This document shows positions 5,260 through 31,460 of a stretch of DNA of 46,013 nucleotides, piece after piece (position 1 is the first letter of the stretch; every line of letters begins with the position of its first letter). The position numbers and the translations under genes are program-made. The DNA lies in IMG/VR virus record IMGVR_UViG_3300037295_000360, positions 124,001 to 170,013 of that record, one strand, 5' to 3'. The notes beneath the pieces were generated by a model. That model was not told where the DNA came from. It worked only from the letters and a program-made list of their open reading frames with translations, and did no database searches. The stretch comes from an uncultured virus (IMG/VR IMGVR_UViG_3300037295_000360). Taxonomy: Duplodnaviria; Heunggongvirae; Uroviricota; Caudoviricetes.

Positions 5260-5474
5260 TAAAAAAAGAATTTTTACAAATGATTGACGAAGAATTCGAA
5301 GAATTCGAAAATGAAAAAAACAAAAGAAAGAATATTAAAATGATTATCGATTTTAATTCTAACAATGTTATTCATTCCTCTAAGGAATTTACAATGACAA
5401 AGCCAAAGCTTAAAGCAAAGTTTACTAGTTCTGTCTATATTAAGAAAAACAACAAAGGAAACTCACTTTTTTAA
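5256..5474 (+). CDS. Small hypothetical protein ending NSLF
   Basis: ATGA overlap with the primase stop; C-terminal SLF as in the polymerase. Confidence 0.65.
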   Translation: MIKKEFLQMIDEEFEEFENEKNKRKNIKMIIDFNSNNVIHSSKEFTMTKPKLKAKFTSSVYIKKNNKGNSLF

Positions 5475-5485
5475 AATAAAACACA

Positions 5486-5914
5486 ATGATAGAGGCTAAA
5501 GATAAAATTCAGCAGTTAGATGAATATTTAAACAAACAGCGAGAAGATTGGACTTTAAAAATCAAAGAATTAACTGAAGATTTAAAATTAGGTAACAATC
5601 TACAAGATGTAAGTGCATATACATTAAGCTACCGCCAAATAATGGTAGAACACCTAGCTGTTATGGGAAATAGAATTAAATCCCAAAAGGCAGTAGTCGA
5701 TAAAAGGTACAAAGAAAAATGGATAGAGTACTTTACATACGATTACAAACTTACCGATAAAATGAAAGAAAGATTTATCGAAGCAGATATTTCTGACGAT
5801 ACGACAATTCTAGAGTTATTAACTATCCAAAAGAGTTTCTTTGAAGGATCTATTAAAACTTTAGATAATATGGGCTTTGCAATAAAGAATCGCCTAGATA
5901 TCAGTCGTCTATAA
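5486..5914 (+). CDS. uvsY: Recombination mediator UvsY-like
   Basis: About 140 aa, helical, Y..Y...FIEAD and C-terminal IKTLDNMGFAIKNRLD; adjacent to uvsW. Confidence 0.7.
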   Translation: MIEAKDKIQQLDEYLNKQREDWTLKIKELTEDLKLGNNLQDVSAYTLSYRQIMVEHLAVMGNRIKSQKAVVDKRYKEKWIEYFTYDYKLTDKMKERFIEADISDDTTILELLTIQKSFFEGSIKTLDNMGFAIKNRLDISRL

Positions 5915-5930
5915 AAAAGATTAAATAGAT

Positions 5931-6914
5931 TTGATTTTAACATTAACTGAAGATAATCAATTTTTAAGAATTGATGATGCTACTGAACTAGAGTTAGAGC
6001 AGATTAAAATATCTCTAACAAAAAGAATTGACAGCTGGAGGTTTCACCCTTTAGTAAAACGCGGAATATGGGATGGATACGTATCATATATTAAAGATGA
6101 TAAATGGATTCCAGCTGGACTCTGGCAATATGTCATGTCAATTTGCAAGGAGTATAGATTTGAACTTAAAATTGAAGGAATAAAAAGATTAATAGACCCT
6201 AATATTAATCCAGAAGTATTTGAAAAATGGTCTTTAGAATTCTTTAAAGACTCTGAAAAATTTACACCTCGTGATTATCAAATAGAGGCTGCTTTTAATA
6301 TTTTAAAGTTTAGAAAATGTCTAGCTGAACTTGCAACTTCTGCAGGTAAAACATTAATTAGTTTTTTAACAGTAGCATATATATTAGAACATAACAATGC
6401 AACTAAAATACTGTTTATAGTACCTAACGTTTCATTAGTAGTACAGGCTCATGAAGATTTTCACGATTACAATTACAAAAACAAAATAGATCTAAGAATT
6501 CAACAAATATTTGCTGGTCAAGATATTAAACCTAATAAAAATATAATTATAGGTACATATCAATCTTTAATTAAAAAGGATGCTGCATACTTTTCAGAAT
6601 TTGATGCAGTAATAGTTGACGAGTGTATACATCCCGATACTCTAATAAAAATGAGCAATGGCTCCTATAAAAAGATAAATGAAATAAAGGCAGGAGAATA
6701 TGTTAAAACAACTAATGATAAAACTTTAGAAATTGAAAATAGAGAAGTTGAATTTGTATATCATGATTTATCGAAAGGAAATCAAATGTTCGAGTTAGAA
6801 ATGGAAGATGGATCTATTATTAAAATAACAGGAAATCATAGAGTTAAATTAACATCAGGGGTATATAAGAGAGTGGATCAATTATCATATACCGATGATA
6901 TATTTTGTATATAA
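5931..6914 (+). CDS. uvsW: UvsW helicase N-fragment fused to N-intein
   Basis: WDG, PRDYQ, ATSAGKT, IVP and TYQS, then VIVDE|CIHPDTLI intein block A at 6624 and block B ITGNH. TTG start. Confidence 0.92.
   Translation: MILTLTEDNQFLRIDDATELELEQIKISLTKRIDSWRFHPLVKRGIWDGYVSYIKDDKWIPAGLWQYVMSICKEYRFELKIEGIKRLIDPNINPEVFEKWSLEFFKDSEKFTPRDYQIEAAFNILKFRKCLAELATSAGKTLISFLTVAYILEHNNATKILFIVPNVSLVVQAHEDFHDYNYKNKIDLRIQQIFAGQDIKPNKNIIIGTYQSLIKKDAAYFSEFDAVIVDECIHPDTLIKMSNGSYKKINEIKAGEYVKTTNDKTLEIENREVEFVYHDLSKGNQMFELEMEDGSIIKITGNHRVKLTSGVYKRVDQLSYTDDIFCI
6624..6911 (+). mobile_element. Split intein N-part (96 aa) in UvsW
   Basis: C1 CIHPDTLIKM..G.YKKINEI..G and TxxH block B (TGNH), then stop. Confidence 0.92.
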
Positions 6915-6951
6915 AAATAGGATATATAATATTAATAACATAAATAATAAA

Positions 6952-7170
6952 ATGCAAAACCCTGAATTTGATTTAACAGAATCTGAAGTATTTCTTACAT
7001 TTCAACGATTAGTGCAAACTGATGGAAATGGATCATATTTTGATGGAAAAGGTAATAGCCTGCCAATAGGTACGCCATTATATTATCAAGTTAATCAGGC
7101 ATCAAATTTAATACAAACACAAAAGATACTAGCAAAATATATTTTAGAATCATATGGCAGCGATTGGTGA
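6952..7170 (+). CDS. Hypothetical protein between the uvsW halves
   Basis: GATATATA at 6921 and an A-rich leader favour ATG 6952 over the track start 6895. Confidence 0.55.
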   Translation: MQNPEFDLTESEVFLTFQRLVQTDGNGSYFDGKGNSLPIGTPLYYQVNQASNLIQTQKILAKYILESYGSDW

Positions 7171-7276
7171 CCAGATTGGTAGAACTCATATTGGAGCATA
7201 TAGCAACCTAGAGTTTAACACAACTGCTATTAGTGCTATTACTGGTTCAGGTATCGGTTACATAAATATGACTTAA
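7154..7276 (+). CDS. Possible 40-aa ORF (MAAIGDQIGR...GYINMT), not in the track
   Basis: Open frame from ATG 7154 to TAA 7276 fills the gap to 7292; it may be a frameshifted tail of the previous gene. Confidence 0.35.
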   Translation: MAAIGDQIGRTHIGAYSNLEFNTTAISAITGSGIGYINMT

Positions 7277-7291
7277 CAATTAAAACGTTTT

Positions 7292-7645
7292 ATGCCACAG
7301 AAGCGATATCTTAAATGGAAAGAACTTAAAAAATGGAATGAAACATCCGGTCAGAAATGGTCAGATGTTTCTGTTTTAATTGAAGTTAACAATATTGTAG
7401 CCGGATCGGGAGGATATGTTGCATATGGTAATCCAGGCCAGAGACTACAAAAAGATATAGGTGACACCAAGACAAAACGATTTCTAGAACTTTATTGTAA
7501 ATTTAAAGGTATCGAGTATCAAGAAAAAAGAGAAATCAATGAAAATATTAAAGTTCTAGGATCTGATTTTGAAATATTCATTAAACAAGGAATAAAGGAA
7601 GGAATTAAAATAAATATAGGCTTTTCTAATAACATACGAAAATAA
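7292..7645 (+). CDS. Hypothetical protein between the uvsW halves
   Basis: 117-aa ORF, Trp-rich N-terminus, no HNH, GIY-YIG, LAGLIDADG or PD-(D/E)xK motif seen. Confidence 0.75.
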   Translation: MPQKRYLKWKELKKWNETSGQKWSDVSVLIEVNNIVAGSGGYVAYGNPGQRLQKDIGDTKTKRFLELYCKFKGIEYQEKREINENIKVLGSDFEIFIKQGIKEGIKINIGFSNNIRK

Positions 7646-7690
7646 CAAATTTTAATATTAATATATATTAAATAAAAAATAATTTAAATC

Positions 7691-8314
7691 ATGAAAAAAC
7701 TTGATGTTTTTAGTTTTATCGACTTTATGAATAATAATGAAATCGATAATTCTATTCAGATTTTACCTAACAACGAGTCAATACTAATTGATGATACTAT
7801 TGAAAAAGAAAATGATATAGCAACACATGATGATATAGTTATCCAAGAGGATATGGCAACACATGATGATATAGTTGTCGAAGAGGATATAATAGAATAC
7901 ATAAAAGATAAAATTTCAGAGGAAATAACTCTTGAAATTATAGAAGATGACACAAATTACACCCTGTATAAGGATATAAATGAGGAATTCATATGTGATA
8001 TATCAATCGAAGGTGCATCCATTGAAGAAGCTTACACTAGAATTATTATTGAGACAACAGAATGGTCTCTTGTATTTCCAGGAAATATTGTAAATAACAA
8101 ATGTATTGTTCCTATAAAAAAACTAGGAATTCTTAATGAAGGAGATACTGGAAATATTAAGCTCGAAGTTGTTGCAGACGGAAATCTATTTATTCCATGG
8201 TCTGACACTTTTAAAATAAAATTATCTAAAAAGGTAACTGTAAACTTAGATGAAAATGCCAAAGTAGGCATTCCCATGTCTAATGTTAATGTTAAGGTTA
8301 ATGTCATAAAATAA
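7691..8314 (+). CDS. Hypothetical protein (acidic N-region, beta-rich C-domain) between the uvsW halves
   Basis: 207 aa; AATATATA at 7660; internal 36-bp repeat. Confidence 0.8.
   Translation: MKKLDVFSFIDFMNNNEIDNSIQILPNNESILIDDTIEKENDIATHDDIVIQEDMATHDDIVVEEDIIEYIKDKISEEITLEIIEDDTNYTLYKDINEEFICDISIEGASIEEAYTRIIIETTEWSLVFPGNIVNNKCIVPIKKLGILNEGDTGNIKLEVVADGNLFIPWSDTFKIKLSKKVTVNLDENAKVGIPMSNVNVKVNVIK
7814..7891 (+). repeat. 36-bp in-frame tandem repeat (DIATHDDIVIQE/DMATHDDIVVEE)
   Basis: Units start at 7814 and 7850. Confidence 0.9.
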
Positions 8315-8370
8315 TTATATCTACGAGTCTTTTATTTTTTAAAATTAAAAAGATTACTAAAACATTTTAT

Positions 8371-8487
8371 ATGAAGATTAATAATATTAAAAAAATAGAA
8401 TATAGCGATACTGTTTATAATCTTAGAATAAAATCAGAAGACGGTTTAAACCACAATTATTTTGCAAATGGGTTAAACGTTTCAAAT
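8371..8487 (+). mobile_element. Split intein C-part (39 aa) in UvsW
   Basis: Blocks F/G end Ser-Asn with Cys+1 at 8488; splicing restores the DECH box. Confidence 0.92.
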
Positions 8488-9306
8488 TGCCATAAAGCCA
8501 AAGGAGCATCAATCAAAGAAATTCTTTCTAAATGTGTAAATGCAAACTACAAATTTGGACTTTCAGGCACAATTCCTAAGCAAGACACGTTAGATCGACT
8601 TACACTCATGAGTCAAACTGGACCTTTAATTACCGAGGTTAAAGCAAGCTTTTTACAAAAGGAAGGTTATATTGCAAAATGTATAGTAAAGGTTATTGAG
8701 ATGAATTATGCAACTCCTAAACAAAGAACAGCATTTATGGAATTGGCTCAAAACAAATATGAAAACAAAGATGTCTTTTCTTTAGAACAAAATTTTGTAA
8801 TTACCAGCAATGCCAGACTCAACTTTATATCTACTGTTATTGCTAAGGTTCCAAGAAATAGTTTAGTTCTTTTTCACAGAATTGAGCATGGCCAACGACT
8901 TTATGAAAAACTTAGACAAGAAAGCAATAAAAGAGTATTCTATGTAGATGGTGGAACTTCGTCTGATATAAGAGAAGAGTATAAAAAGAAAATGGAGGCT
9001 GGTGAAGAAATCGTAATAGTAGCTTCTTTCGGAACATTTTCCACAGGAATTTCTATAAAAAAAATACACAATATATTCTTTACAGAATCTTTTAAATCTG
9101 AAGTTATTATACGACAGTCAATAGGTAGAGGACTAAGACAACATGAATCAAAGGACAAGGTTTTAATTATAGATTTCGTAGACAATATCAGGTCTATTGA
9201 ATGGGATAACTATTTATATAAACATGGAAAGGCAAGGCAGGCTATTTATACACAAGAAAAGTTTCCATTTACAGTTAAGAGTGTTGAATTTGATGGAGAT
9301 ATATAA
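8371..9306 (+). CDS. uvsW: C-intein fused to UvsW C-fragment
   Basis: VYNLRI...HNYFANGLNVSN|CHKAK, then GLSGT, STGISIK and QSIGRGLR (SF2 motifs III, V, VI). Confidence 0.93.
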   Translation: MKINNIKKIEYSDTVYNLRIKSEDGLNHNYFANGLNVSNCHKAKGASIKEILSKCVNANYKFGLSGTIPKQDTLDRLTLMSQTGPLITEVKASFLQKEGYIAKCIVKVIEMNYATPKQRTAFMELAQNKYENKDVFSLEQNFVITSNARLNFISTVIAKVPRNSLVLFHRIEHGQRLYEKLRQESNKRVFYVDGGTSSDIREEYKKKMEAGEEIVIVASFGTFSTGISIKKIHNIFFTESFKSEVIIRQSIGRGLRQHESKDKVLIIDFVDNIRSIEWDNYLYKHGKARQAIYTQEKFPFTVKSVEFDGDI

Positions 9307-9340
9307 CTTATCAATAATATAATAAAAAATACATAAAACA

Positions 9341-11326
9341 ATGGCTAACATTAACAAAATTTCTTCATTTAAGAGTTTTTCTGAGGTTAAATCACAGGAA
9401 TCTACTGTAAAATTAAGAGAAGCAAACAATACAAAAAGACAAGAAACGGTAAATAAATTGGCATCTATTCTTGACGAGATGGGATTAACCTCCTTAGAAG
9501 GATTAGAAGAAGTACAGCGAAATGGAATTATAGATAAAATGTTTCCAAGCGGTTCTCTAGAAAAAGTAGTTCCTCCAACTCCACCTAGAGAAAAATTAAA
9601 AGAAGGTAACGCATTTGGAGATGCGGTACGTAAGGCCAAAGAGGCCGGCAATGATGAATTCGATTTTGAAGGTAAAACATTTAAGGTTGAAGAATCTATT
9701 TTTAATGAAGCATTAAAGGATGACTACACTGCGAAATATAATACAACAGAAATTACTCTTAAAAACGGATATAAGCAATTAAAATCTACTGCATTAAATA
9801 ATATGTATAATAAGGTTGGTGAATTAATAAAGGAATATGATGTAAATGTAAAATCAGTTATTTTTAACTTCGACCCCAATGCATTATCTGAAGCTACCGT
9901 GCTACTGGACACTACTGATCCTGAGGATAAAGTACTTCAAAAATTTATTAAAAAGCATAACATTAAAATGAAAGACACGAGTGTAAGAGCCGGCGGAGAT
10001 TTTGCTGAATATGAATACACTGGAAAGCGTAAAGATCTTGAAACAATGATTTCGGATTTTTGGGGTGATGATGACTTGATAGAATTTATTGAAGAATCTA
10101 TTGCCAATGAAGGTTTTGAAAAATCAGCAATCCAACGTGCGTTGAAGGCTAACGGATATGATCTTAAACAATCCGACGTTAAGCTTGGTCAAAAAAAGAA
10201 ATCAGGAGGTTATGTGCAATATACTCTTAATGGTGAAGTTATAGGGTCTAATGACTATTCAATGGATAAATTAATTGCGATTGCTACTGAGAAGATTAAA
10301 GAAAATCCAAAGAAATTTAAGTTAGAAGAATTAAAAGAAGGTAATGCGTTTGGTGACGCAGTACGTAAGGCCAAAGAGGCCGGCGATGATGAATTCGATT
10401 TTGAAGGTAAAACATTTAAGGTTGAAGAGTCTATCAAAGAATCCTTTTACAGACTACCAAAAAAAGTAATAAGTAACGACCTATATGTTCTAGATAATCG
10501 TATGCAACAACTAACTTCTGTGGTAAGCAATGGTTCTGATCTAGATATTAAGGCACTGGATAATATTATTTCAATGTTACAAGATGTTAGGAAATCTGCA
10601 AAGAAATTTGACAAAAAAGAAGATTTACTCGGCACTGTTTATGAATCATTTGTTAATGAGGCCAAAGGTTTTAAAAACACAAAAGACTTTGAAGATTTCC
10701 TAGAAGAAATAGATGCAATGGGAGAGTATGACATTAAAAAATTTATGGGAAGAAATTACATAGATACCCCAGGTGGATATAGAGATGAAGCTGATGATTA
10801 CGATAATGACATTACGAAATATATGATTTCTAACATGGGACTTACAGAATTTAATGAACTTAAAACATATTGGGAAAATAATGTTCGCGAATCATTTGTT
10901 AATGAGGCCAAAGGTTTTAAAAACACAAAAGACTTTGAAGATTTCCTAGAAGAAATAGATGCAATGGGAGAGTATGACATTAAAAAATTTATGGGAAGAA
11001 ATTACATAGATACCCCAGGTGGATATAGAGATGAAGCTGATGATTACGATAATGACATTACGAAATATATGATTTCTAACATGGGACTTACAGAATTTAA
11101 TGAACTTAAAACATATTGGGAAAATAATGTTCGCGAATCATTTGTTAATGAGGCCGATATTAAATCTGACGATGAATTTAAAGATTACGCTGTTAATCTC
11201 TTAAAGAAGGCATTTGGAGATGAATTTGACGAGGACAAATCACAAGAAGTAATTGATGGTATCTTACAGAAATCAGATGGAGATTATGGTGCAGCTGTTG
11301 GAATGCTAACAAGTTCACTAGGTTAA
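9341..11326 (+). CDS. Modular acidic polyprotein, probable internal head protein
   Basis: Recurrent ES-x-x-NE(A/G) and L-x-E sites (ESIFNEA, ESIANEG, ESFVNEA x3, LKEG x2, LSEA); GATATATA at 9298. Confidence 0.7.
   Translation: MANINKISSFKSFSEVKSQESTVKLREANNTKRQETVNKLASILDEMGLTSLEGLEEVQRNGIIDKMFPSGSLEKVVPPTPPREKLKEGNAFGDAVRKAKEAGNDEFDFEGKTFKVEESIFNEALKDDYTAKYNTTEITLKNGYKQLKSTALNNMYNKVGELIKEYDVNVKSVIFNFDPNALSEATVLLDTTDPEDKVLQKFIKKHNIKMKDTSVRAGGDFAEYEYTGKRKDLETMISDFWGDDDLIEFIEESIANEGFEKSAIQRALKANGYDLKQSDVKLGQKKKSGGYVQYTLNGEVIGSNDYSMDKLIAIATEKIKENPKKFKLEELKEGNAFGDAVRKAKEAGDDEFDFEGKTFKVEESIKESFYRLPKKVISNDLYVLDNRMQQLTSVVSNGSDLDIKALDNIISMLQDVRKSAKKFDKKEDLLGTVYESFVNEAKGFKNTKDFEDFLEEIDAMGEYDIKKFMGRNYIDTPGGYRDEADDYDNDITKYMISNMGLTEFNELKTYWENNVRESFVNEAKGFKNTKDFEDFLEEIDAMGEYDIKKFMGRNYIDTPGGYRDEADDYDNDITKYMISNMGLTEFNELKTYWENNVRESFVNEADIKSDDEFKDYAVNLLKKAFGDEFDEDKSQEVIDGILQKSDGDYGAAVGMLTSSLG
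9596..10435 (+). repeat. Dispersed 105-bp module (LKEGNAFGDAVRKAKEAG.DEFDFEGKTFKVEESI) at 9596-9700 and 10331-10435
   Basis: Near-identical copies with mostly synonymous differences. Confidence 0.92.
10643..11155 (+). repeat. 246-bp (82-aa) tandem duplication bounded by three copies of GAATCATTTGTTAATGAGGCC
   Basis: The 21-mer starts at 10643, 10889 and 11135; the two units appear identical. Confidence 0.95.
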
Positions 11327-21136: not shown

Positions 21137-22534
21137 ATGATTCTTGACATTGAGCAAAGGGATAAAGACGTTATTATATCGTATTATAATACAGAAGGAG
21201 AAGTAGCGTTTAAACAATATCCCGTAAGTAATTTTCAGAATTGGTATGTATGCGAGGACAAAGATAAAGCAGCCAGTACTCAATTTAAAAATTGGGATGG
21301 TAGATCTGTTAAACTTGGAAATGGAAGACAATATAATAAGTTTTCCATTCTTTATTTTCTAGATAGTCTATCTGAAAAAGATAAGGCAGATCTTACTGCA
21401 TATAATATGCCAAAAACATATTTTGTGGATATTGAAACTGAGATAGTTGATGGTTTTCCAAAGGCAGAAGAGGCTAAAAGTAGAATATTATCATTTTCAA
21501 TAATCACACCTGACCGCAAGGCAATAGTTCTTGGATTAGAAGACATGGCATCTGATAAAATTCAAAAGATTCAAGATGATACTAATGAGTATTTTAAGGA
21601 TTTTGACATGGATTGGGAATTTAAATATCATAAGTTTAATTCTGAATATGATATGGTATATACATTCCTGTTTAAGTTTTTACCTAAATTTCCGATGATG
21701 ACTGGTTGGAATTTTATTAATTATGACTGGCAATATATTACAAACAGATGTAAAAGATTACAGATAGATATTAAAGATATTGGAAGGACAAAATCAGTAG
21801 ATAACAGAGATTCAAGACCTTTACACCTTGGAATTTTAGATTATATGCAATTATATGACAAGTATGATAGAAGTGTAAAAGTAAAGGAATCCAACTCCCT
21901 TGATTATGTTTCTAGTCAAGTCCTTAATGTTAATAAAATCAAGTTCACAGGATCATTGCAAGACCTGTATCGTGACAACTTTGTTAAATACATATATTAT
22001 AATGTAGTCGATTCAGTTTTAGTGTACTATATCGATCAAAAACTAAAGTCAATGGAAGTTCTTTTAACTCTTGCAAATATTACAAATATGCCATTGTATA
22101 AGGCAAGTTCTCCAGTGGCAGTTACTGAAGCAATTATGGCTAGAAAGTTAGCAGAACAAGGAATGCGAATCGGTAGTGAAGAAAAAACAGATAGTAGTAA
22201 AGATACTCAATATGCAGGTGCTTATGTTAAGGAACCTATTTTAGGATATTATGAAGGAGTAAGTGCATTCGATTTTGCTTCGCTATATCCTTCAATAATG
22301 CGTCAGTTTAATATTTCACCAGATGCATATATTGAAAAAATTTACAAGAGTGAAATAGAAGAAAGAAGAAAGGATAAAGGGGTTATTGTATGTGACAATG
22401 GAGTTGTTTATAAAACCGAAGACTCTATTCTTAGAAAAATATTAAGTGATCTATATAATCAACGTAAGGATTACAAAAAAACATCATATACATATTTTAC
22501 ACTCGCAGATAAATTAAAGAAAAGACTTAAATAA
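21137..22534 (+). CDS. gp43: Family B DNA polymerase, N-terminal subunit (exonuclease, motif A)
   Basis: DIET, GWN..NYD, LDYV, YNVVD, YAGAYV and DFASLYPSIM; ends after the first fingers helix (QRKDYKK). Confidence 0.93.
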   Translation: MILDIEQRDKDVIISYYNTEGEVAFKQYPVSNFQNWYVCEDKDKAASTQFKNWDGRSVKLGNGRQYNKFSILYFLDSLSEKDKADLTAYNMPKTYFVDIETEIVDGFPKAEEAKSRILSFSIITPDRKAIVLGLEDMASDKIQKIQDDTNEYFKDFDMDWEFKYHKFNSEYDMVYTFLFKFLPKFPMMTGWNFINYDWQYITNRCKRLQIDIKDIGRTKSVDNRDSRPLHLGILDYMQLYDKYDRSVKVKESNSLDYVSSQVLNVNKIKFTGSLQDLYRDNFVKYIYYNVVDSVLVYYIDQKLKSMEVLLTLANITNMPLYKASSPVAVTEAIMARKLAEQGMRIGSEEKTDSSKDTQYAGAYVKEPILGYYEGVSAFDFASLYPSIMRQFNISPDAYIEKIYKSEIEERRKDKGVIVCDNGVVYKTEDSILRKILSDLYNQRKDYKKTSYTYFTLADKLKKRLK

Positions 22535-22582: not shown

Positions 22583-23563
22583 ATGAACAATAATATCTTT
22601 GAAAAAAGAGTAAATATTTTACCTTACGAATATCCAATGTTACTTGCATATAAAGATGCAATTAGACACTCATACTGGATTCACACTGAATTTAATTTCA
22701 CAACAGACATTGATGATTTTAAGAGTAAAATAACAGAAGAGGAAAGAGAAGTTATAAAAAGGTCAATGTTGGCAATAGCGCAAATTGAAGTAAATGTAAA
22801 AACATTTTGGGCTGACCTTTACAAAAGAATGCCAATTACTGAAATTGGAGATGTAGGAATGACGTTTGCGGAATCAGAAGTAAGACATAAAGACGCTTAT
22901 GCACAATTACTCAGAATTTTAGGATTAGAAGAGGAATTTAAAAATGTAGTTGAAATTCCTGCGATTAAAGATAGAATTGCATATCTATCAAAATATCTAG
23001 ATGGTACCAGAAGCAAGGATAATAAAATGTATACTAAATCAGTACTTTTATTTTCACTATTCATAGAGCATGTTAGTTTATTTAGTCAATTTTTAATTAT
23101 GATGTCGTTTAACAAGGAGAAAAACCTCTTCAAAGGTATTTCAAATGTAGTTGAAGCGACAAGCAAGGAGGAAGAAATCCACGGAAATTTCGGTTCAGAA
23201 TTAATTAACATTATTAAGAAAGAAAATCCAGAATGGTTTGATGCAGAATTCGAAGAACTAATAGATTCAGCATGTAAAAAGGCGTATGCATCTGAGGTTA
23301 AAATACTTGATTGGATTTTTGAAAAAGGAGAATTAGATTTTTTATCTAAAGATACAATTAAACAATTTATTCAAAACAGATTTAACAATTCATTAGGAAG
23401 AATTGGAATGAAGCCAGTATTTGATGTAGATTTTAATGAAATAGAAAAAACATTATGGTTTGACATTGAAATTCTATCAACAAAGGAGGGAGACTTCTTT
23501 TACAAAAAAAGTATCGATTATTTTAAGAAATCAAAGTCAATTACTGAAGATGATTTATTCTAG
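22583..23563 (+). CDS. nrdB: Ribonucleotide reductase beta subunit
   Basis: QIEV, ESEVRH..AY, IEHVSLFSQF and EEEIH dimetal ligands; DFF and C-terminal EDDLF. Confidence 0.95.
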   Translation: MNNNIFEKRVNILPYEYPMLLAYKDAIRHSYWIHTEFNFTTDIDDFKSKITEEEREVIKRSMLAIAQIEVNVKTFWADLYKRMPITEIGDVGMTFAESEVRHKDAYAQLLRILGLEEEFKNVVEIPAIKDRIAYLSKYLDGTRSKDNKMYTKSVLLFSLFIEHVSLFSQFLIMMSFNKEKNLFKGISNVVEATSKEEEIHGNFGSELINIIKKENPEWFDAEFEELIDSACKKAYASEVKILDWIFEKGELDFLSKDTIKQFIQNRFNNSLGRIGMKPVFDVDFNEIEKTLWFDIEILSTKEGDFFYKKSIDYFKKSKSITEDDLF

Positions 23564-23579
23564 AAAAAAACAAAACAAC

Positions 23580-24644
23580 ATGAATTACGAAAAGAATTAT
23601 TGGCTTAATGAAGATAGTCGAACATTCCTCTCTCGCGGCTATATTAAGGAAACACCCGAGCAACGAATTAAGGATATATCTAATAATGCAGAAAAGATAC
23701 TAAAAATTGATGGATTTGCAAAGAAGTTTGAGGAGTATATGAACTTAGGTTTTTATAGTTTATCAACACCTGTTTGGATTAATTTCGGAAAAGACAAAGG
23801 TCTTCCTGTTAGCTGTTATGGAAGTAATGTAGATGATAACTTAGATAGTATATTAAATGCAAGTAGAGAAATAGGAATGATGTCAAAATACGGAGGAGGA
23901 ACTTCAGCTTTTTTAGGAAACATCAGAGAAAGAGGAGCTACTATTTCCACAGGAGGAACAGCAGACGGACCTGTTCATTATGCCAGAATGTATGATACAA
24001 CCGTTGATGTATGTAAACAATCAGAGGCAAGAAGAGGTGCATGTGCAGTATGGTTGCCAGTAGAACATAAAGATATCTTAGAATTTTTAGACATTGGAAC
24101 TGATGGAAATCCTATTCAAAATTTACAATACGGAGTCACCGTAACTGATAATTGGATATCAGAAATGAAAGAAGGAGATACTCAAAAACGTAAAATATGG
24201 GCAAAGATTATTCAACGACGTAATGAGTTTGGTTTTCCTTACATTATGTTTAAGGATAATAGTAATAACAATTCCCCTTATAAGGAATTAGGCCTTGACA
24301 TTACTGCCTCAAACTTATGCGTAGCACCTTGGACTGAAGTTAGTGTAAAAGTAAATGGCGTTGAAAAAACGATGCCAATTATAATGTTAGATTGTTTATT
24401 TCAATATAATCTATATACAACACTAGAAGTTAAATCATTTAACATAGAAACTTCTGAGATTGAATATAAAAAAGTGATAGATAGTGCAATGACTTCTAAA
24501 AAAGCAAAAGTTATGAAAATAACAGATGAAGCTACTGGAAAATCAATAACATGTACACTGGATCATAAAGTATATACTTCGAATAGAGGATATATTATGG
24601 CAAAAAATCTAAGAGAAGATGACGTATTAGTTATTAATTCTTAA
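23580..24644 (+). CDS. nrdA: RNR alpha N-fragment fused to N-intein (no ATP cone)
   Basis: STP..INFG, SCY, GGGT, RRGA, GFPYI and SNL|CVAPWTEV. ATG 23580 is preferred to the track start 23460. Confidence 0.93.
   Translation: MNYEKNYWLNEDSRTFLSRGYIKETPEQRIKDISNNAEKILKIDGFAKKFEEYMNLGFYSLSTPVWINFGKDKGLPVSCYGSNVDDNLDSILNASREIGMMSKYGGGTSAFLGNIRERGATISTGGTADGPVHYARMYDTTVDVCKQSEARRGACAVWLPVEHKDILEFLDIGTDGNPIQNLQYGVTVTDNWISEMKEGDTQKRKIWAKIIQRRNEFGFPYIMFKDNSNNNSPYKELGLDITASNLCVAPWTEVSVKVNGVEKTMPIIMLDCLFQYNLYTTLEVKSFNIETSEIEYKKVIDSAMTSKKAKVMKITDEATGKSITCTLDHKVYTSNRGYIMAKNLREDDVLVINS
24318..24641 (+). mobile_element. Split intein N-part (108 aa) in NrdA
   Basis: C1 at 24318; block B ITCTLDHKV; RGY..AKNL...D.L end. 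Confidence 0.92.
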
Positions 24645-24652
24645 AGTTTTAT

Positions 24653-24719
24653 GTTCTGAGATAAAGTTGCAAAATTATTTAAATATATATTAAAATAAAA
24701 GTAACTTTATCTTATGAAC
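24653..24719 (+). promoter_or_regulatory. Start-codon-sequestering hairpin with a late-promoter motif in its loop
   Basis: GTTCTGAGATAAAGTTGC pairs with GTAACTTTATCTTA(T)GAAC over ATG 24714; AATATATA at 24682. Confidence 0.75.
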
Positions 24720-25658
24720 TATGAACGAATATACAATAACTTATGTGAATTATGTAAAACAACTGATGTTAAAGATCGATTAAGTAATAGGAATGCCAAT
24801 GATGAAAGGCTTAGTGCAGACTATATTTATACTGAAAAACATCATATAGTACCTAAGCATATTGGAGGTGATGACTTAGAATCTAATCTAGTTGTTATGT
24901 TACCTGAAGAACACTATATGGCACATTTATTAAGATTTAAAGCTTATAATAATAGAAAAGATTTTCTAGCAATTAGATTCATGGTTAACGGATATGTTTA
25001 TAAGAAAAAAGTATCTAGTGCATTAAGTTCCAAATTAAAGAATAAGTTGGTTGCATCATTCAAACAGAATATATCAATGTTTAGAAAGCAAAATACATGG
25101 CATAGTATTAAAGGTGTAAACAACATATCAGAAGCAAGAAAGGGTACAATGCCTGTTGTAGATTCTGAAACGCTTAAAATGATAGGTTCTGTTGATGTAA
25201 ATCATCCAAATGTTTTATCTGGAAAATGGAGACACCATTCAACTGGTAAGATATCAGTAATATGTAAAACATCAGGTGTTAAGAAATACATAACAGTGAA
25301 TGAATATAGGGATAATTATGACGAATATCATGCAAACATCGGCGACGCTAAAGGTGAAAAGAATTCAAGATTTAGTGGATTTACTGACGAAGAGCTTGTT
25401 AATATTGTATCTGAATTTTCAGTTGAAATGAACTTAGGATTTTTATTACCATATAGAATGGTGTCGACTTACTATAGAAAAATTAAAAAGTATGAAAAAT
25501 TACCAAAATCATTTAGCTCGTTTAGATTTAATGGATTAGGTAGTAAAGAATTACATAGATTAGCATCTGAAAAAACAGGATTAGTTCTTAATGTATATTA
25601 CAATAATAGTCCAAAAATAAGAAAAGAAATTAAAAACAAAAATATAACAATATGTTAA
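24714..25658 (+). CDS. Free-standing HNH homing endonuclease
   Basis: YTEKHHIVPKHIGG.D...NLV....EEHY.AH; lies between the nrdA intein halves. Confidence 0.9.
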   Translation: MNYERIYNNLCELCKTTDVKDRLSNRNANDERLSADYIYTEKHHIVPKHIGGDDLESNLVVMLPEEHYMAHLLRFKAYNNRKDFLAIRFMVNGYVYKKKVSSALSSKLKNKLVASFKQNISMFRKQNTWHSIKGVNNISEARKGTMPVVDSETLKMIGSVDVNHPNVLSGKWRHHSTGKISVICKTSGVKKYITVNEYRDNYDEYHANIGDAKGEKNSRFSGFTDEELVNIVSEFSVEMNLGFLLPYRMVSTYYRKIKKYEKLPKSFSSFRFNGLGSKELHRLASEKTGLVLNVYYNNSPKIRKEIKNKNITIC

Positions 25659-26638
25659 AAATACAATATTTAGAAGAAGAAATACCAGTCTTCGATATTA
25701 CAGTAGAAGATAACCACAACTTCTACGGGGACGATATATTAGTCCACAATTGCAGTGAGATTCAGCTTCCAACTGATTCTTTTAATTCGTTTGTATGTTG
25801 TTTAGGTTCTATTAATCTTTTACATTGGGATGAGATTAAAAAAACAGATGCTATCGAAACATATGTATTGTTCTTAAATGCAGTTATGGATGAATTTATT
25901 AAGAAGTCATTTAAAATGCCAGGTATGTCAAGGGCACATCGATTTGCCGAACAACATAGAGCATTAGGTCTAGGGGTTCTTGGCTATCATTCACTATTCC
26001 AGTCAAAATTAATAACATTTGACTCTTTACAATCAAAGGCATTAAACCATGATATATTTTCAACTTTAAAGGAAAGAAGTGATGGGGCATCCCGATGGTT
26101 ACATGATGAAAAAGGTTATCGATCTTTAAGAGATGGATATGCAAATACAACATTAGTTGCGATTGCACCAACAAAGAGTAGTTCATTTATTTTAGGTCAA
26201 GTTTCAATGGGAATAGAGCCTATTAAATCTAATTATTTTATTAAAGATTTAGCAAAGTCAAAAACAATATACAAAAATCCATTTCTTATTGATGAATTAA
26301 TCAAGTATAACTTAAATACACCTGAAGTATGGGAAGGAATTCTTAAAAGAGATGGAAGTGTTCAGCACTTAGACTTTCCAACAAAGGAAGTTTTTAAATC
26401 TTTTGTTGAAATTACACCAAAAGAAATAGTTTTACAAGCAGCACAGAGACAGAAATTTATAGATCAGTCACAATCATTAAATTTAATGATTCATCCTAGT
26501 GTTCCGGCAAAGGACATTAATAAATTGTATTTATATGCCCATGAAGAGGGAATCAAAACACTTTACTACCAATTTAGTCAAGGCTCAGCTCAATCATTTG
26601 CTAGAGATATTTTAGACTGTGCAAGCTGTGAAGCGTAA
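25652..26638 (+). CDS. nrdA: C-intein (33 aa, 25652-25750) fused to RNR alpha C-fragment
   Basis: VFDITVEDNHNFY...LVHN|CSE, CCLGS, LGLG, IAPT, IDQSQSLN, KTLYY and terminal CASCEA. Confidence 0.95.
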   Translation: MLKIQYLEEEIPVFDITVEDNHNFYGDDILVHNCSEIQLPTDSFNSFVCCLGSINLLHWDEIKKTDAIETYVLFLNAVMDEFIKKSFKMPGMSRAHRFAEQHRALGLGVLGYHSLFQSKLITFDSLQSKALNHDIFSTLKERSDGASRWLHDEKGYRSLRDGYANTTLVAIAPTKSSSFILGQVSMGIEPIKSNYFIKDLAKSKTIYKNPFLIDELIKYNLNTPEVWEGILKRDGSVQHLDFPTKEVFKSFVEITPKEIVLQAAQRQKFIDQSQSLNLMIHPSVPAKDINKLYLYAHEEGIKTLYYQFSQGSAQSFARDILDCASCEA

Positions 26639-27556: not shown

Positions 27557-28753
27557 ATGACAATAGATGAATTAATACTAAAACCAGAAGAAAATCTAAC
27601 ACAAGAGGAGATTAAAATATTGGTTGAACATTATTCAATGATGTCAGCTAAATATACGGCATATGAACAGGCAGTTAAGGTAATGCTTAACTCAATATAT
27701 GGTGCATTTGGAAATAAATGGTTTCACTTTTTTAACATAGACATTGCTGAATCTATTACACTACAGGGTCAATCCGCCATTTTATACTCAGAAAAAATTC
27801 TTAATAAGTATTTTCATGAATTTTGGCTTAAAGATAAGCAAGTGCATTCTCATTTTAATATTTCTATTAAGAATAAACTAGTAAGACCATCTGTTGTTTA
27901 TATTGACACCGATTCGGCATATGTTCAATTCGAAGAAATGTATGAATCTATTGAGTGGAATGATGATTCTATGTCAATAGATAAGTTTATTATGGAATTA
28001 TATAACTTTAGACTTAAGGATTACATTTTTAAGTGTATGGAAAAGTATTCAGAAGCAACAAATACTGAAAATTTTCTTGTATTTGAATTAGAAACAATAG
28101 CATATTCAGGAATATGGTTAGCTAAGAAAAAATATCTTCAAAATATAGCATGGGAAGACAGGCTTGACATTAATGATAGATATCCTTCACTTAAAAAAAT
28201 AAAAACAATAGGATTCGATACTATTCAAAGTTCAACACCTGCAATTGCAAGGAAGCATTTAACTGAAGCCCTTAAATTGATTCTTTCAGAAAAGCCAACA
28301 GCAGCTCTCCTAAAAAGATTAGTAGATTATTTAAAACAATGTAAAAAAGAATTTCAGCTCGCAGATATAGATGAAATTTGCTTCAACAAAAGAACTAATA
28401 ACATTGATAAGTATATTTTAGATGACACTGTTGAATTCCAGTATGGCTTAAAATGCCCATCTAATGTCAAGGCGGCAGGTTTTTATAATTTTCTAATGAA
28501 TAACAATCCAAAATATAAAAACAAGTACAAGATGATTGGTAACGGTGAAAAACTTAGACTGTATCATTGTAAACATACTACTTGTGAAATATTTGCATAT
28601 CAACCAGGTGCTCATCCATATGAAATAGCACCACTTGTAGATTATGAACTACAATTTGAAAAAAGCGTAATTGATCCGTTAAACAGAGTTCTTTCAGCGG
28701 TAGGATTACATACACTAAACAGAAATTTAATTTATTCAACATCATTATTTTAA
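27557..28753 (+). CDS. gp43: Family B DNA polymerase, C-terminal subunit
   Basis: Motif B KVMLNSIYGAFG, ITLQGQ, motif C YIDTDS, KKKY, QSSTP and C-terminal TSLF. Confidence 0.93.
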   Translation: MTIDELILKPEENLTQEEIKILVEHYSMMSAKYTAYEQAVKVMLNSIYGAFGNKWFHFFNIDIAESITLQGQSAILYSEKILNKYFHEFWLKDKQVHSHFNISIKNKLVRPSVVYIDTDSAYVQFEEMYESIEWNDDSMSIDKFIMELYNFRLKDYIFKCMEKYSEATNTENFLVFELETIAYSGIWLAKKKYLQNIAWEDRLDINDRYPSLKKIKTIGFDTIQSSTPAIARKHLTEALKLILSEKPTAALLKRLVDYLKQCKKEFQLADIDEICFNKRTNNIDKYILDDTVEFQYGLKCPSNVKAAGFYNFLMNNNPKYKNKYKMIGNGEKLRLYHCKHTTCEIFAYQPGAHPYEIAPLVDYELQFEKSVIDPLNRVLSAVGLHTLNRNLIYSTSLF

Positions 28754-28936: not shown

Positions 28937-29893
28937 ATGGCAAAAAATAAATTTACATTCGATGACTTAAACGCAGAATTAGCAGGATTAAACCCCTTAG
29001 GTTCTGTTATGGACCAATCAAATTTTTCTGAAGTAACAGAATGGATTCACACTGGAAATTATCATTTAAACGCATGTCTTTCTGGTTCGGTATGGGGAGG
29101 ATGGCCTAATAACCGTTCTTGTTCAATAGCAGGACCATCTGGTACTGGAAAAACCTTTCTTACATTAAATTCAGTTCGAGAAGCAATTAACATGGGATAT
29201 TATGTTATTTATTATGATTCAGAAGCTGCAGTAGATAAAGACCAAATGAAAAAGTTTGGTATTGATATTAGTAAAGTAAATTATCAGCCTGTAAATACTG
29301 TACAGGCGTTTAGGACTTCAATCACTACTATTACTCAAAAAATGCAAGAGGTAAAAAGAAAAGGTGGAGAAGTACAAAAAATCATGATTATTCTTGATTC
29401 AGCAGGTAACCTTGCGACTGCAAAGGAAATTGATGATGCAACCAGTGGAAGTGAAAAGGCAGATATGACTAGATCTAAGATTTTAAAATCTATTTTTAGA
29501 ATCATAATGACTCCGCTTGCTGATTTAAAAATTCCATTTTTGTTTACTAATCATACTTATCAAACACAAGACTTTATTTCAAGACAAGTTGCAGGTGGAG
29601 GTTGTTTAGTTCCAGGATCTAAAGTGAGAATGTTCGATAACACCCTAAAGAACATAGAAGATATAGTAGAAGGTGATTCAGTTCTTACATTAAATGGAGG
29701 TATGGAAATAGAAAACACATGGACGTTTGAAAAGAAAACATACCGAATAGAATTTGAAGATAATACGATCATAGAATGTTCTGAAGATCATAGATTTTTT
29801 ACAGGTAATGTTGAAGACGATCCATTAGATGACAATAATTGGATATTAGCAAGAGATTTAGTAAAAAACAATGAAGTGTCTAGATATATATAA
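28937..29893 (+). CDS. uvsX: UvsX/RecA N-fragment fused to N-intein (96 aa, 29603-29890)
   Basis: GPSGTGKT, YDSE, ILDS, TNHTY and GGG|CLVPGSKV; block B CSEDH. Confidence 0.93.
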   Translation: MAKNKFTFDDLNAELAGLNPLGSVMDQSNFSEVTEWIHTGNYHLNACLSGSVWGGWPNNRSCSIAGPSGTGKTFLTLNSVREAINMGYYVIYYDSEAAVDKDQMKKFGIDISKVNYQPVNTVQAFRTSITTITQKMQEVKRKGGEVQKIMIILDSAGNLATAKEIDDATSGSEKADMTRSKILKSIFRIIMTPLADLKIPFLFTNHTYQTQDFISRQVAGGGCLVPGSKVRMFDNTLKNIEDIVEGDSVLTLNGGMEIENTWTFEKKTYRIEFEDNTIIECSEDHRFFTGNVEDDPLDDNNWILARDLVKNNEVSRYI

Positions 29894-29947
29894 CAGGTGG
29901 TGGTTAACAGCCACCTATTATCTAACAAAAAATTGAAACTACTAAAA

Positions 29948-30940
29948 ATGCCAGTACTTAAGAAATATATTAATCCAACATATGATGAATTTAAGAAACT
30001 TTTAAATACTCATTATAATGACATGAATATCAATAACGAAGAACATTTTTTAGAGATGTTTAGTTTCGTTTATTCTAATGAAATAAAAGGAGTATGTGGA
30101 TTTAAATTAGAATGTCAAAAATTTTTTAAACAGAAAAGGAATGGTAAAGCAGTTTCTAAATTAAGCACATCATATTGGAATTCCAGGGGATATGATAATG
30201 AATACGCTACCTTAAAAATAAGTGAATTACAAAGAAAAAACAGTAATGTATGTAATTCACATTGGACGGATAAAGGGTATAATCAGATTGAAGCAACTTT
30301 AATGGTAGCTAATGAACAATCTAGAAGATCCAACTTGCGATATACTAAATATGATAAACATGAAATTAGTAGACAGTCAGTATGGTCTATCGAATATTGG
30401 AAAAACATAGGTTTTTCTGAAGAAGAAGCAAAATACGAGGCACATAAAAGGAATTATGGTTGCAGAGAATTCTGGTCTAGTGAAAGTGAATACGATACTA
30501 TTAAAGCAATAATATCTAAAAAACAAAGTAACTTTATAAAAAATAATCCAGAAAAATTTGCATCTTTTTTCGGAAGCGTGTCTAAGGAGGAAGTTGTATT
30601 TTTCAATAATATCGTAAAATCTATTGATAATATAAAACATACTGAATTTATAGTTAACATACAGAAATCTGAAGAGTTAAATCAAGGTATAATAAAATAT
30701 GATGGCTATTTTAAAGACGAGGATTCATTAATTCTTATAGAATATGATGGGTTATATTGGCACAATCAAATATACGATGAAATAAAGGACAGAATATGTC
30801 TAGAATTTAGAAATGATATTACTGGAATTATTAGAGTAAGTGACAATTCATACAAGAATAATACAAAAACAATAAAATTAATAAAAGATGCAATTAAACA
30901 AATTAAAAATAAAGAGTGTAACCGAGTTAAAATCTACTAA
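29948..30940 (+). CDS. Free-standing Vsr/EDxHD-like PD-(D/E)xK homing endonuclease
   Basis: SKEE...YDGY...IEYDGLYWH...D; N-terminal (Y/H)W...G(Y/F)....A repeats. Start uncertain (GTG 29897 or ATG 29948). Confidence 0.8.
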   Translation: MPVLKKYINPTYDEFKKLLNTHYNDMNINNEEHFLEMFSFVYSNEIKGVCGFKLECQKFFKQKRNGKAVSKLSTSYWNSRGYDNEYATLKISELQRKNSNVCNSHWTDKGYNQIEATLMVANEQSRRSNLRYTKYDKHEISRQSVWSIEYWKNIGFSEEEAKYEAHKRNYGCREFWSSESEYDTIKAIISKKQSNFIKNNPEKFASFFGSVSKEEVVFFNNIVKSIDNIKHTEFIVNIQKSEELNQGIIKYDGYFKDEDSLILIEYDGLYWHNQIYDEIKDRICLEFRNDITGIIRVSDNSYKNNTKTIKLIKDAIKQIKNKECNRVKIY

Positions 30941-31460
30941 AGTACATGATTTAACAGTAAGAGATGTTCAACATTATATTACTGAAAATGGAGTAATACA
31001 TCACAATACAGGTCCGGAGTATGCCGCTTCTATTGTTCTTATGTTAACTAAAGCACAATTAAAGGATGGCACTGAAAAGGTTGGTATTATTGTAACGGCA
31101 AAACCTGATAAAAATAGATTTGCTAAGCCACATCCTATTAAGTTTCATTTAGATTTTACCAAAGGTATGAATCCGTATGTTGGCCTAGAGCAATACGCAA
31201 CATGGGATATCTGTGGAATCACAAGAGGTTCTATAGAAAAAGGAGTTAAAACACCAAAGGCAACAGCACGCGGATGGATCTGCCAGCACCTAGATGAAGT
31301 AGTTACAAACTCTGAATTTTTTAGTGAAAAGGTATTTACAAAGGAGATATTAGAAAAAATAAATATTCATATTAAGCCCCTTTTTAACTATAATACCGAA
31401 AGCGATAATATAGATAACGAAATCGGAGCTTTACTTGATGAAAATTTAACAAACGAATAA
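30888..31460 (+). CDS. uvsX: C-intein (40 aa, 30888-31007) fused to UvsX C-fragment
   Basis: VHDLTV..VQHYITENGVIHHN|TGPEYAAS, KNRF and G.NPY.GL. Confidence 0.93.
   Translation: MQLNKLKIKSVTELKSTKVHDLTVRDVQHYITENGVIHHNTGPEYAASIVLMLTKAQLKDGTEKVGIIVTAKPDKNRFAKPHPIKFHLDFTKGMNPYVGLEQYATWDICGITRGSIEKGVKTPKATARGWICQHLDEVVTNSEFFSEKVFTKEILEKINIHIKPLFNYNTESDNIDNEIGALLDENLTNE

Follow-up and report, generated by a model that had tools for sequence, protein, structure and literature searches.

In this work we describe the uvsW helicase gene of an uncultured T4-like salt-lake phage of the class Caudoviricetes (IMG/VR record IMGVR_UViG_3300037295_000360), which is broken inside its DExH box by a split intein and whose two parts are separated by a few ordinary genes without any detected homing endonuclease. 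The analysed stretch of DNA, referred to as the window, comprises 46,013 nucleotides (positions 124,001 to 170,013), that is the final 46 kb of a 170-kb record which is 61% complete; among the genes of the window are T4-type ones for replication, recombination and the head. We regard it as probable that uvsW is functional here and is broken by a class-1 split intein, in a lineage which lost the endonuclease and holds a probable tail-fibre module in the gap, and that the window represents a deletion variant of this arrangement. What sets the locus apart lies in the gap, where a probable tail-fibre module of naturally varying length takes the place of the endonuclease.

Anatomy of the broken gene and its intein

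The upstream open reading frame (ORF; 5931-6914, + strand, 327 aa) is composed of a 231-aa N-extein (5931-6623) and a 96-aa intein N-half closed by a stop codon (6624-6914), and it reads ...AVIVDE/CIHPDT...DDIFCI-stop, the slash marking the extein-intein junction. The downstream one (8371-9306, + strand, 311 aa) starts with a 39-aa intein C-half (8371-8487; terminus ...NHNYFANGLNVSN) and continues as a 272-aa C-extein (8488-9306), reading MKINN...NGLNVSN/CHKAK.... Helicase motif I lies within the N-extein, whose final two residues are the DE of the DExH box; the C-extein begins with the +1 Cys, giving the CH of DECH, and contains the C-terminal helicase domain. This reading of the ORFs agrees with the coordinates and anatomy given in a preliminary description of the locus (VIVDE joined to a 96-aa N-half, about 1.45 kb of other DNA, and a 39-aa C-half joined to CHKAK).

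Both exteins are collinear with T4 UvsW, an SF2 helicase. Residues 12-231 of the N-extein aligned with residues 13-233 of the T4 protein (PDB 2OCA; E 1.2e-23) and residues 1-267 of the C-extein with residues 234-501 (E 5.4e-32). They meet at T4 UvsW 233/234, with no residue lost at the joint, and since the alignments are contiguous the break is exact, falling within the DExH box directly after its E. The collinear part covers the N-terminal domain, motif I, the DExH box and the C-terminal helicase domain. The Pfam ResIII and DEAD helicase models matched the N-part; ResIII (E 2.4e-20) and, on the C-part, Helicase_C (E 2.8e-7) exceeded their cut-offs, and UvsW_N (PF21241) reached 23.8 bits on the N-part at a cut-off of 25.3. 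Two PHROG families, phrog_16259 (E 2.3e-49) and phrog_9690 (E 4.6e-69), match exactly these half-proteins, intein parts included, and the gene adjoining uvsW gave a weak UvsY-like match (phrog_231, E 0.018).

The intein halves carry the main residues of a splicing element. The nucleophilic first residue, C232 of the upstream ORF (VIVDE/C232), was present in every one of the 26 N-halves aligned, and so were T300, G301, N302 and H303, which make up block B T-x-x-H. In the C-half the terminal Asn is followed by the +1 Cys (VSN39/C40H), and S38, N39, C40 and H41 did not vary in any of the 14 C-halves compared. Together with the 2OCA alignments, these residues bear out the proposal that a split intein lies within the DExH box of UvsW. 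Nothing in the analysis bore out the label of an essential gene, which had been attached to uvsW at the same time; T4 uvsW mutants are viable.

The ratio of nonsynonymous to synonymous substitution rates (dN/dS), calculated against the module-bearing relative L086, was 0.31 in the intein N-half and 0.17 in the C-half, with 0.21-0.25 in the exteins. The comparison with L005, a relative with an endonuclease in the gap, gave 0.19 and 0.10 for the N-half and C-half, respectively, and across comparisons the extein values ranged from 0.08 to 0.25. Such ratios indicate purifying selection on the intein halves and the exteins alike. The 96-aa N-half resembles the DnaB mini-intein 1MI8 (E 0.0046). In structure prediction, residues 226-327 of the N-part and residues 1-46 of the C-part formed a complex with a score of 0.87, the best of three controls scoring 0.00; the mark used for docking was passed by 116 of 157 solved complexes and by 2 of 215 mismatched pairs. 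At least 94% of contacts were common to the three runs, and the partner pLDDT (predicted local distance difference test) was at least 81. As split inteins have already been solved, this pass may reflect likeness to known structures and is not proof.

According to the mechanism we propose, a class-1 split intein of the HINT fold breaks uvsW within the DExH box, immediately behind its E, two polypeptides would be made separately, and the 96-aa and 39-aa halves would dock and trans-splice, giving a 503-aa UvsW with DECH. Several points weigh against this reading, the first being that trans-splicing of the UvsW halves is a predicted step. Two Pfam models matched the N-half below their curated cut-offs, Hint (PF01079; E 2.1e-6, 27.9 bits against 29.7) and Intein_splicing (PF14890; E 8.9e-6, 26.0 bits against 35.8). 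Canonical inteins have a penultimate His in the C-half and an Asp in block F (VYDL), and at these places the C-half has Ser38 and Asn17 (VYN17L). It is on such grounds (Ser not His before the terminal Asn, Asn not Asp in VYDL, Pfam matches under the cut-off) that one could suppose the intein halves to associate without splicing, UvsW being a non-covalent two-chain helicase or a decaying pseudogene pair; split phage enzymes that work without splicing do exist, for example Aeh1 NrdA, as mentioned in PMC2677866. We consider this explanation improbable, as no substitution of Cys1, T-x-x-H, the terminal Asn or the +1 Cys occurs in sets of diverse sequences (26 and 14, respectively) and there would be no reason to keep them without catalysis, the dN/dS is as low as 0.10-0.31 in the intein halves and 0.08-0.25 in the exteins, and both ORFs are intact in all strains seen. 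Moreover, Ser38 and VYNL are fixed in all 14 C-halves, so they appear as a family trait, which speaks against local decay.

Genes found between the halves

The gap (6915-8370, 1,456 bp) holds orfA, a 40-aa ORF, orfC and orfD, all on the + strand. The first gene of the module, orfA (6952-7170), codes for 72 aa from the ATG at 6952, its frame being open from 6895. Its homologues are located directly 3' of uvsW in L024, L025 and L093, and directly after the intein N-half in L004, L007 and L086. The 40-aa ORF (7154-7276) is a fusion remnant, in which the first 3 codons of a 69-aa gene are followed by the 37 codons that close a 693-aa tail-fibre-like gene; alignment with L004 on either side revealed an in-frame join across a short imperfect microhomology, with the deletion junction at about 7160-7166. 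Then follows orfC (7292-7645), encoding a small, probably helical protein of 117 aa, always paired with orfD and conserved in L086-L093 at 35-59% identity. Its model had a pLDDT of 54, and the best structure-atlas score of 0.77 was under the useful range.

The last gene of the gap, orfD (7691-8314, 207 aa), for which 369 homologues were found, encodes an acidic N-terminal repeat region and then an immunoglobulin (Ig)-like beta-sandwich, modelled with a pLDDT of about 90 over residues ~88-180. Among its structural neighbours in the PDB were a phage connector chain and Ig V domains, and the viral ones were led by uncharacterised homologues, with minor-tail, tail-fibre and BppU proteins coming next; no nuclease was among the neighbours listed. 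At position 7824, in the acidic repeat region, the metagenome runs X3 and X5 have an 18-base insertion, and the L004 and L007 versions are 213 aa long, so the repeat number of orfD is polymorphic.

The preliminary description had stated that the intervening ORFs show no nuclease motif, and the gap without a detectable endonuclease stood in the Pfam, PHROG, tblastn and structure searches. Neither Pfam nor PHROG gave a family match for the gap ORFs at E<=0.1. The tblastn search for remnants employed five queries, i.e. the gap proteins of L005 and phage S16, the two endonuclease-position ORFs of the window and the L005 HNH protein, and in the gaps of the window, L004 and L086 it yielded noise only (E of at least 0.079; best E in the window gap 0.43). 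Thus, neither a family match nor a remnant of a free-standing homing endonuclease gene was seen between the uvsW halves of the window. The structure comparison that had been suggested for these ORFs gave the Ig-like fold of orfD, with no nuclease neighbour listed, and the pLDDT 54 model of orfC. A homology search with orfC returned only orfC itself, which is a limit of the word index, and orfC and orfD found no match in the related records G001-G005, an uninformative result with G001-G004 47-66% complete and G005 5%.

Given the pLDDT 54 model, it is formally possible that orfC is a small novel nuclease, which is another point on the opposite side of the balance. Should a homing endonuclease have gone unrecognised among the gap ORFs, most plausibly as orfC, the locus would simply be a fractured gene of the ordinary kind with a new nuclease family; orfC has no family match and a poor model, and new endonuclease families have been found in exactly such settings (described in PMC2677866). 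We judge this very unlikely. In L088-L091 the orfC-orfD pair has tail-fibre genes as neighbours and neither uvsW nor an intein close by, and in L093 it lies outside uvsW, after the module. Additionally, orfC is only 117 aa long and probably helical, with no nuclease motif seen, and the five endonuclease queries were blank in the gap. A module related to tail fibres remains the preferred reading of the gap content. The pair was found beside a large collagen-like tail-fibre gene in four of the four distant loci examined (L088-L091), a count which excludes L094-L096 and L087, the latter also having the pair, and the 693-aa gene matched the 'tail fiber' family phrog_7809 (E 2e-11). The identification of the module as probable tail-fibre or virion (structural) genes draws on moderate PHROG matches and gene neighbourhood, and this too has to be set against our interpretation.

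Long and short forms and the history of the gap

In L004 and L007, which are 99% identical to the window, the gap of 4,274 bp contains orfA, the 69-aa, 202-aa and 693-aa genes, orfC and orfD. The only trace of the 693-aa gene in the 170-kb record, 61% complete, is the 40-aa remnant, which fuses the start of the 69-aa gene to the end of the 693-aa gene, so the window is a natural 2.8-kb deletion derivative. The long and the short form are both real and coexist in one habitat type, as contigs of four runs demonstrate. Logan contigs of 6,935 nt from runs X1 and X2 cover 5800-9500 with 0 differences. Contigs from X3 and X5 follow uvsW-N, the intein N-half and orfA up to 7159 and then turn into long-form sequence, and other contigs of these runs come from the end of the 693-aa gene, join the window sequence at 7169 and pass through orfD and the intein C-half into uvsW-C; in this long form both gap-edge joins are the same as in the window. 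X1 and X2 may be the source samples, though the assembler differs, and all four runs are salt-lake metagenomes. The arrangement is also present in four IMG/VR contigs, and the L003 contig ends right after orfA, at the point of strain divergence.

The window comes from a metagenome assembly, and the L003 contig stops just where the strains differ, hence one could suspect an assembly chimera of two strains or genome regions. We find this scarcely credible: the two 6,935-nt contigs span 5800-9500 without a difference, X3 and X5 bridge the joins of the intein N-half with orfA and of orfD with the intein C-half, and L004, L007 and the 58%-identical L086 share the gene order in separate assemblies. 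Misassembly had been named beforehand as something that would undo the reading, and contigs of independent runs carry both gap-edge joins.

Relatives allowed us to estimate how frequent each state of the locus is. Using the N-half as query, 80 IMG/VR loci were found, 74 of them with an intact uvsW (71 DETH, 2 DECH and 1 DEAH); the other six comprised four split genes with both halves, one intein N-half followed by the contig end, and one contig ending before the site. A search with the intein N-half gave 548 cluster representatives at E<=0.001, and among the best 150 of these, 75 were UvsW-N joined to the intein at DE/C and stopping right after it, and another 5 were single-chain UvsW with a contiguous intein. 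Named phages contributed 29 matching records, and all four which were opened, S16, CF-SP2, PM2 and Lak-B4 (the last read with TAG=Q), had a PD-(D/E)xK-type ORF in the gap. In L005 (78% identical to the window; N-extein 83%) and L006 (N-extein 83%) a single 321-aa ORF occupies a 1,014-bp gap; it matched the 'endonuclease' family phrog_15427 (E 2.9e-24), is 36% identical to S16 gp114.1 (E 6e-15) and gave Pfam restriction-endonuclease-fold matches below threshold.

A scan with the degenerate pattern DEC.HPDT retrieved 53 IMG/VR loci, classified by our own reading. A PD-(D/E)xK-type endonuclease stood in the gap in 33 of them, 27 with a UvsW-like N-extein (two queries) and 6 without. The module type was represented by four loci, contigs already seen (L117=L086, L139=L007, L148=L004 and the partial L106=L003), and ten were long ORFs without UvsW similarity. 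Of the remaining loci, L126 has a 571-aa DUF7487 ORF with an EFNGVYWHN motif in the gap; in L127 nothing separates the halves, and a similar ORF of 616 aa follows the C-half; L115 has an empty gap of ~210 bp in a different helicase; L131 and L140 have a contiguous mini-intein; and L125 ends inside the intein. These records indicate that fractured uvsW is widespread and that its gap normally holds one PD-(D/E)xK-type endonuclease ORF. The gap content is plastic, with an endonuclease in the 78%-identical relative, six genes in the 99%-identical ones and 2.8 kb of them lost in the window. L005 has a second break in uvsW-C (7999-10153), near residue 182, with an HNH endonuclease gene inside (8846-9802; phrog_12434, E 2.5e-20) and no clear intein hallmarks at the flanking ends.

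The order N-half, six genes, C-half is unchanged in L086, found in the orfD search, although its UvsW is 58% identical to that of the window and its orfA, orfC and orfD 54-56%; the length of the six-gene gap in L004, L007 and L086 is 4.27-4.34 kb. The 693-aa fibre-like genes of L004 (8060-10141) and L086 (3437-5512) are 85% identical, the neighbouring genes 54-69%, which suggests that the 693-aa gene alone was recently exchanged between these lineages.

The suggested synteny comparison with relatives carrying an intact uvsW was run. In L024 and L025 an intact DETH uvsW is followed, 75 bp on, by an orfA-like gene and then by a homologue of the 202-aa gene, and in L093 the module spans the region from 96 bp past the uvsW stop to the gene which follows uvsW-C in the window. 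The gap genes are thus the module located directly downstream of uvsW elsewhere and not arbitrary insertions, and the event looks like a local reshuffling of [intein-C + uvsW-C] versus the module. The idea of a neutral landing pad has to be amended accordingly, as a random landing is not what these loci suggest. The placement of the DUF7487-containing ORF after the C-half in L127 (7266-11214) and between the halves in L126 (7254-10946), with 54-59% extein identity to each other's group, points to the same kind of swap.

Here as well some findings run counter to the interpretation. The L093 contig begins inside uvsW-C, so the intact state of its uvsW is not visible. In both lineages with the module, the closest relatives by extein have the endonuclease (L005 and L100 for the window, L134 for L086), and the module arrangement may have arisen once, with later replacements, or twice independently. 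The inteins of the window and L086 are no more similar to each other (60% identity) than to those of endonuclease-bearing relatives (64-72%), which leaves a single recent transfer of the entire [intein-module-intein] block unsupported.

In the explanation we favour, the free-standing PD-(D/E)xK-type homing endonuclease which normally occupies the gap in this family is gone in the lineage of the window, and the gap now holds orfA, the 69-aa, 202-aa and 693-aa fibre-like genes, orfC and orfD. By recombination at repeated promoter-like motifs, [intein-C + uvsW-C] and the module could have swapped places, or tandem duplication and complementary losses could have had the same effect. In the strain of the window, a 2.8-kb microhomology deletion removed the three middle genes. 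A bolder proposal, to which we give a rather low probability, is that the fractured-gene gap serves as a cargo slot, in which a host-range (tail-fibre) module is swapped among co-occurring phages with intein and extein sequences as homology arms, possibly aided by the endonucleases of co-infecting relatives with the canonical allele. It would be consistent with the 85% identity of the 693-aa gene between lineages whose flanking genes are 55-60% identical, with the gap alternating between endonuclease and module in close relatives, and with long and short forms in one habitat.

Transcription, known systems and other split genes

Late-promoter motifs had been assigned to positions 6921 and 7660, which was not confirmed, the T4 TATAAATA being absent from both positions. 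The site at 6921 fits a different, promoter-like motif found before virion genes, and 7660 fits neither. Overall, TATAAATA occurs 14 times in the window versus 13.6 expected by chance, and it was rejected. The motif GATATATAA (6921-6929, + strand) lies 30 nt upstream of the orfA start codon, and it was also seen 26-42 nt ahead of other ORF starts, those of the portal and the prohead protease included. All ten GATATATA sites are on the + (coding) strand. ATATATAA is present 12 times on the + strand of the window and once on the - strand, and 9 of the 12 sites on the + strand stand 9-42 nt before an ORF start, the intergenic share of the window being 6.5%. Sites of the motif include those of the portal, the prohead protease, orfA (6922) and the gene after uvsW-C (9299), and the motif also stands before the endonuclease gene of L005 and before orfA in L025, L093 and L086. 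In the form (A/G)GATATATAA it is located 9-42 nt ahead of ORF starts and nearly restricted to the coding strand, and we regard it as a candidate promoter element for this group of phages.

The 56 nt before the intein C-half contain no such motif, and no terminator-like site was found in 5400-9500, in a scan which was not informative. With neither a motif before the C-half nor a terminator-like site, transcription of the C-half probably relies on read-through, coming from the module or from DNA still farther upstream, and in this way read-through could produce both UvsW halves. The supposed dependence of active UvsW on late transcription of the C-half found no backing in these results; T4 uvsW itself is a late gene. 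The sigma-70 scan of 5400-9500 gave 23 promoter-like sites against 26.8 expected and was not informative either.

Fractured genes were defined by Dassa, London, Stoddard, Schueler-Furman and Pietrokovski in 2009 (PMC2677866), and the window resembles them in that a DNA-metabolism gene of a phage is split at an intein, whose halves end and begin adjacent ORFs of the same strand in one locus. L005, S16, PM2, Lak-B4 and the 33 IMG/VR loci have an endonuclease in the gap, with its 3' end overlapping the C-half start, as in typical fractured genes. In contrast, the window gap has three or four ORFs without an endonuclease, and the sister strains six ORFs over 4.3 kb. The one locus without an endonuclease reported in the text of PMC2677866 is gp41-7; the gap is empty there, while that of the window holds the neighbour module. 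The same paper presents a gene-breaking model, in steps III-IV of which a split-intein locus loses its endonuclease and uncoupling of the gene parts follows. The window fits these predicted steps of endonuclease loss and dislocation, and it looks like the first stage of uncoupling. UvsW does not occur in the main text of PMC2677866 (0 occurrences in a text search of the main text).

The cyanobacterial DnaE and the PolB of Nanoarchaeum equitans are fully unlinked, unlike uvsW with its halves 1.5-4.3 kb apart on one strand. Separate loci of the DnaE type were not what we found in the window, where 1,456 bp lie between halves of the same strand and no terminator-like site was found between them. 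With T4 UvsW (PDB 2OCA, 1RIF) the exteins share collinearity over residues 13-501, the T4 gene being, in contrast, one continuous ORF free of inteins. Salmonella phage S16 (NC_020416; gp114/gp114.1/gp115, PHROGs 16259, 22417 and 9690) has the same insertion site and the same intein family, with its N-half 45% and its C-half 53% identical to those of the window; its record labels the halves only 'DNA helicase'. It differs in the gap, where there is a 291-aa PD-(D/E)xK-like gp114.1 and no cargo genes. The MIJ3 PolB split intein, a survey of actinobacteriophage inteins, a review of T4 mobile elements and the genome of Campylobacter phage IBB_35, as far as the text of these sources covers such loci, concern endonuclease-containing or out-of-frame variants. 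Literature searches returned no description of cargo genes between intein halves in phages, which is no proof of absence.

Staged by comparison, the locus may be viewed as a rare natural intermediate between genes fractured around a homing endonuclease and fully unlinked genes of the DnaE type. It would mean that a split-intein break behaves as any intergenic site, at which kilobases of unrelated genes are gained, exchanged and lost with the host gene still under purifying selection. From a practical point of view, the large family of split inteins at the UvsW DExH box, filed only as 'DNA helicase', could supply orthogonal split inteins for protein engineering.

Other split genes were noticed in the window. 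The nrdA gene (23460-26638) is fractured by a split intein, with the junctions ...ASNL/CVAP... and ...LVHN/CSEI..., and its gap contains an HNH endonuclease gene (24714-25658; phrog_655, E 1.2e-26), the end of which overlaps the C-half start. In uvsX (28937-31460), also fractured by a split intein (...GGG/CLVPGS... and ...IHHN/TGPE...), the gap ORF (29897-30940, 347 aa) gave no Pfam, PHROG or PDB match and had in common with the L126 gap ORF only a short motif, E-Y/F-D/N-G-x-Y-W-H-N, in a match of 14 residues (E 0.008). By motif it is a putative endonuclease. The preliminary description had cited both genes as fractured in the normal way around a homing endonuclease, which agrees with the HNH gene of nrdA and less well with the uvsX gap ORF and its lack of a family match.

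The T4-type DNA polymerase is likewise present as two ORFs, 21137-22534 (N-part, phrog_2062/262) and 27557-28753 (C-part, phrog_1918/262), about 5 kb apart; no intein hallmarks were seen at their ends, and nrdB, the fractured nrdA and a 254-aa ORF lie between them. Next to the broken helicase gene, a 661-aa gene following uvsW-C (9341-11326) encodes long internal protein repeats, and its length and repeat content vary widely among relatives, giving multiple overlapping tblastn matches.

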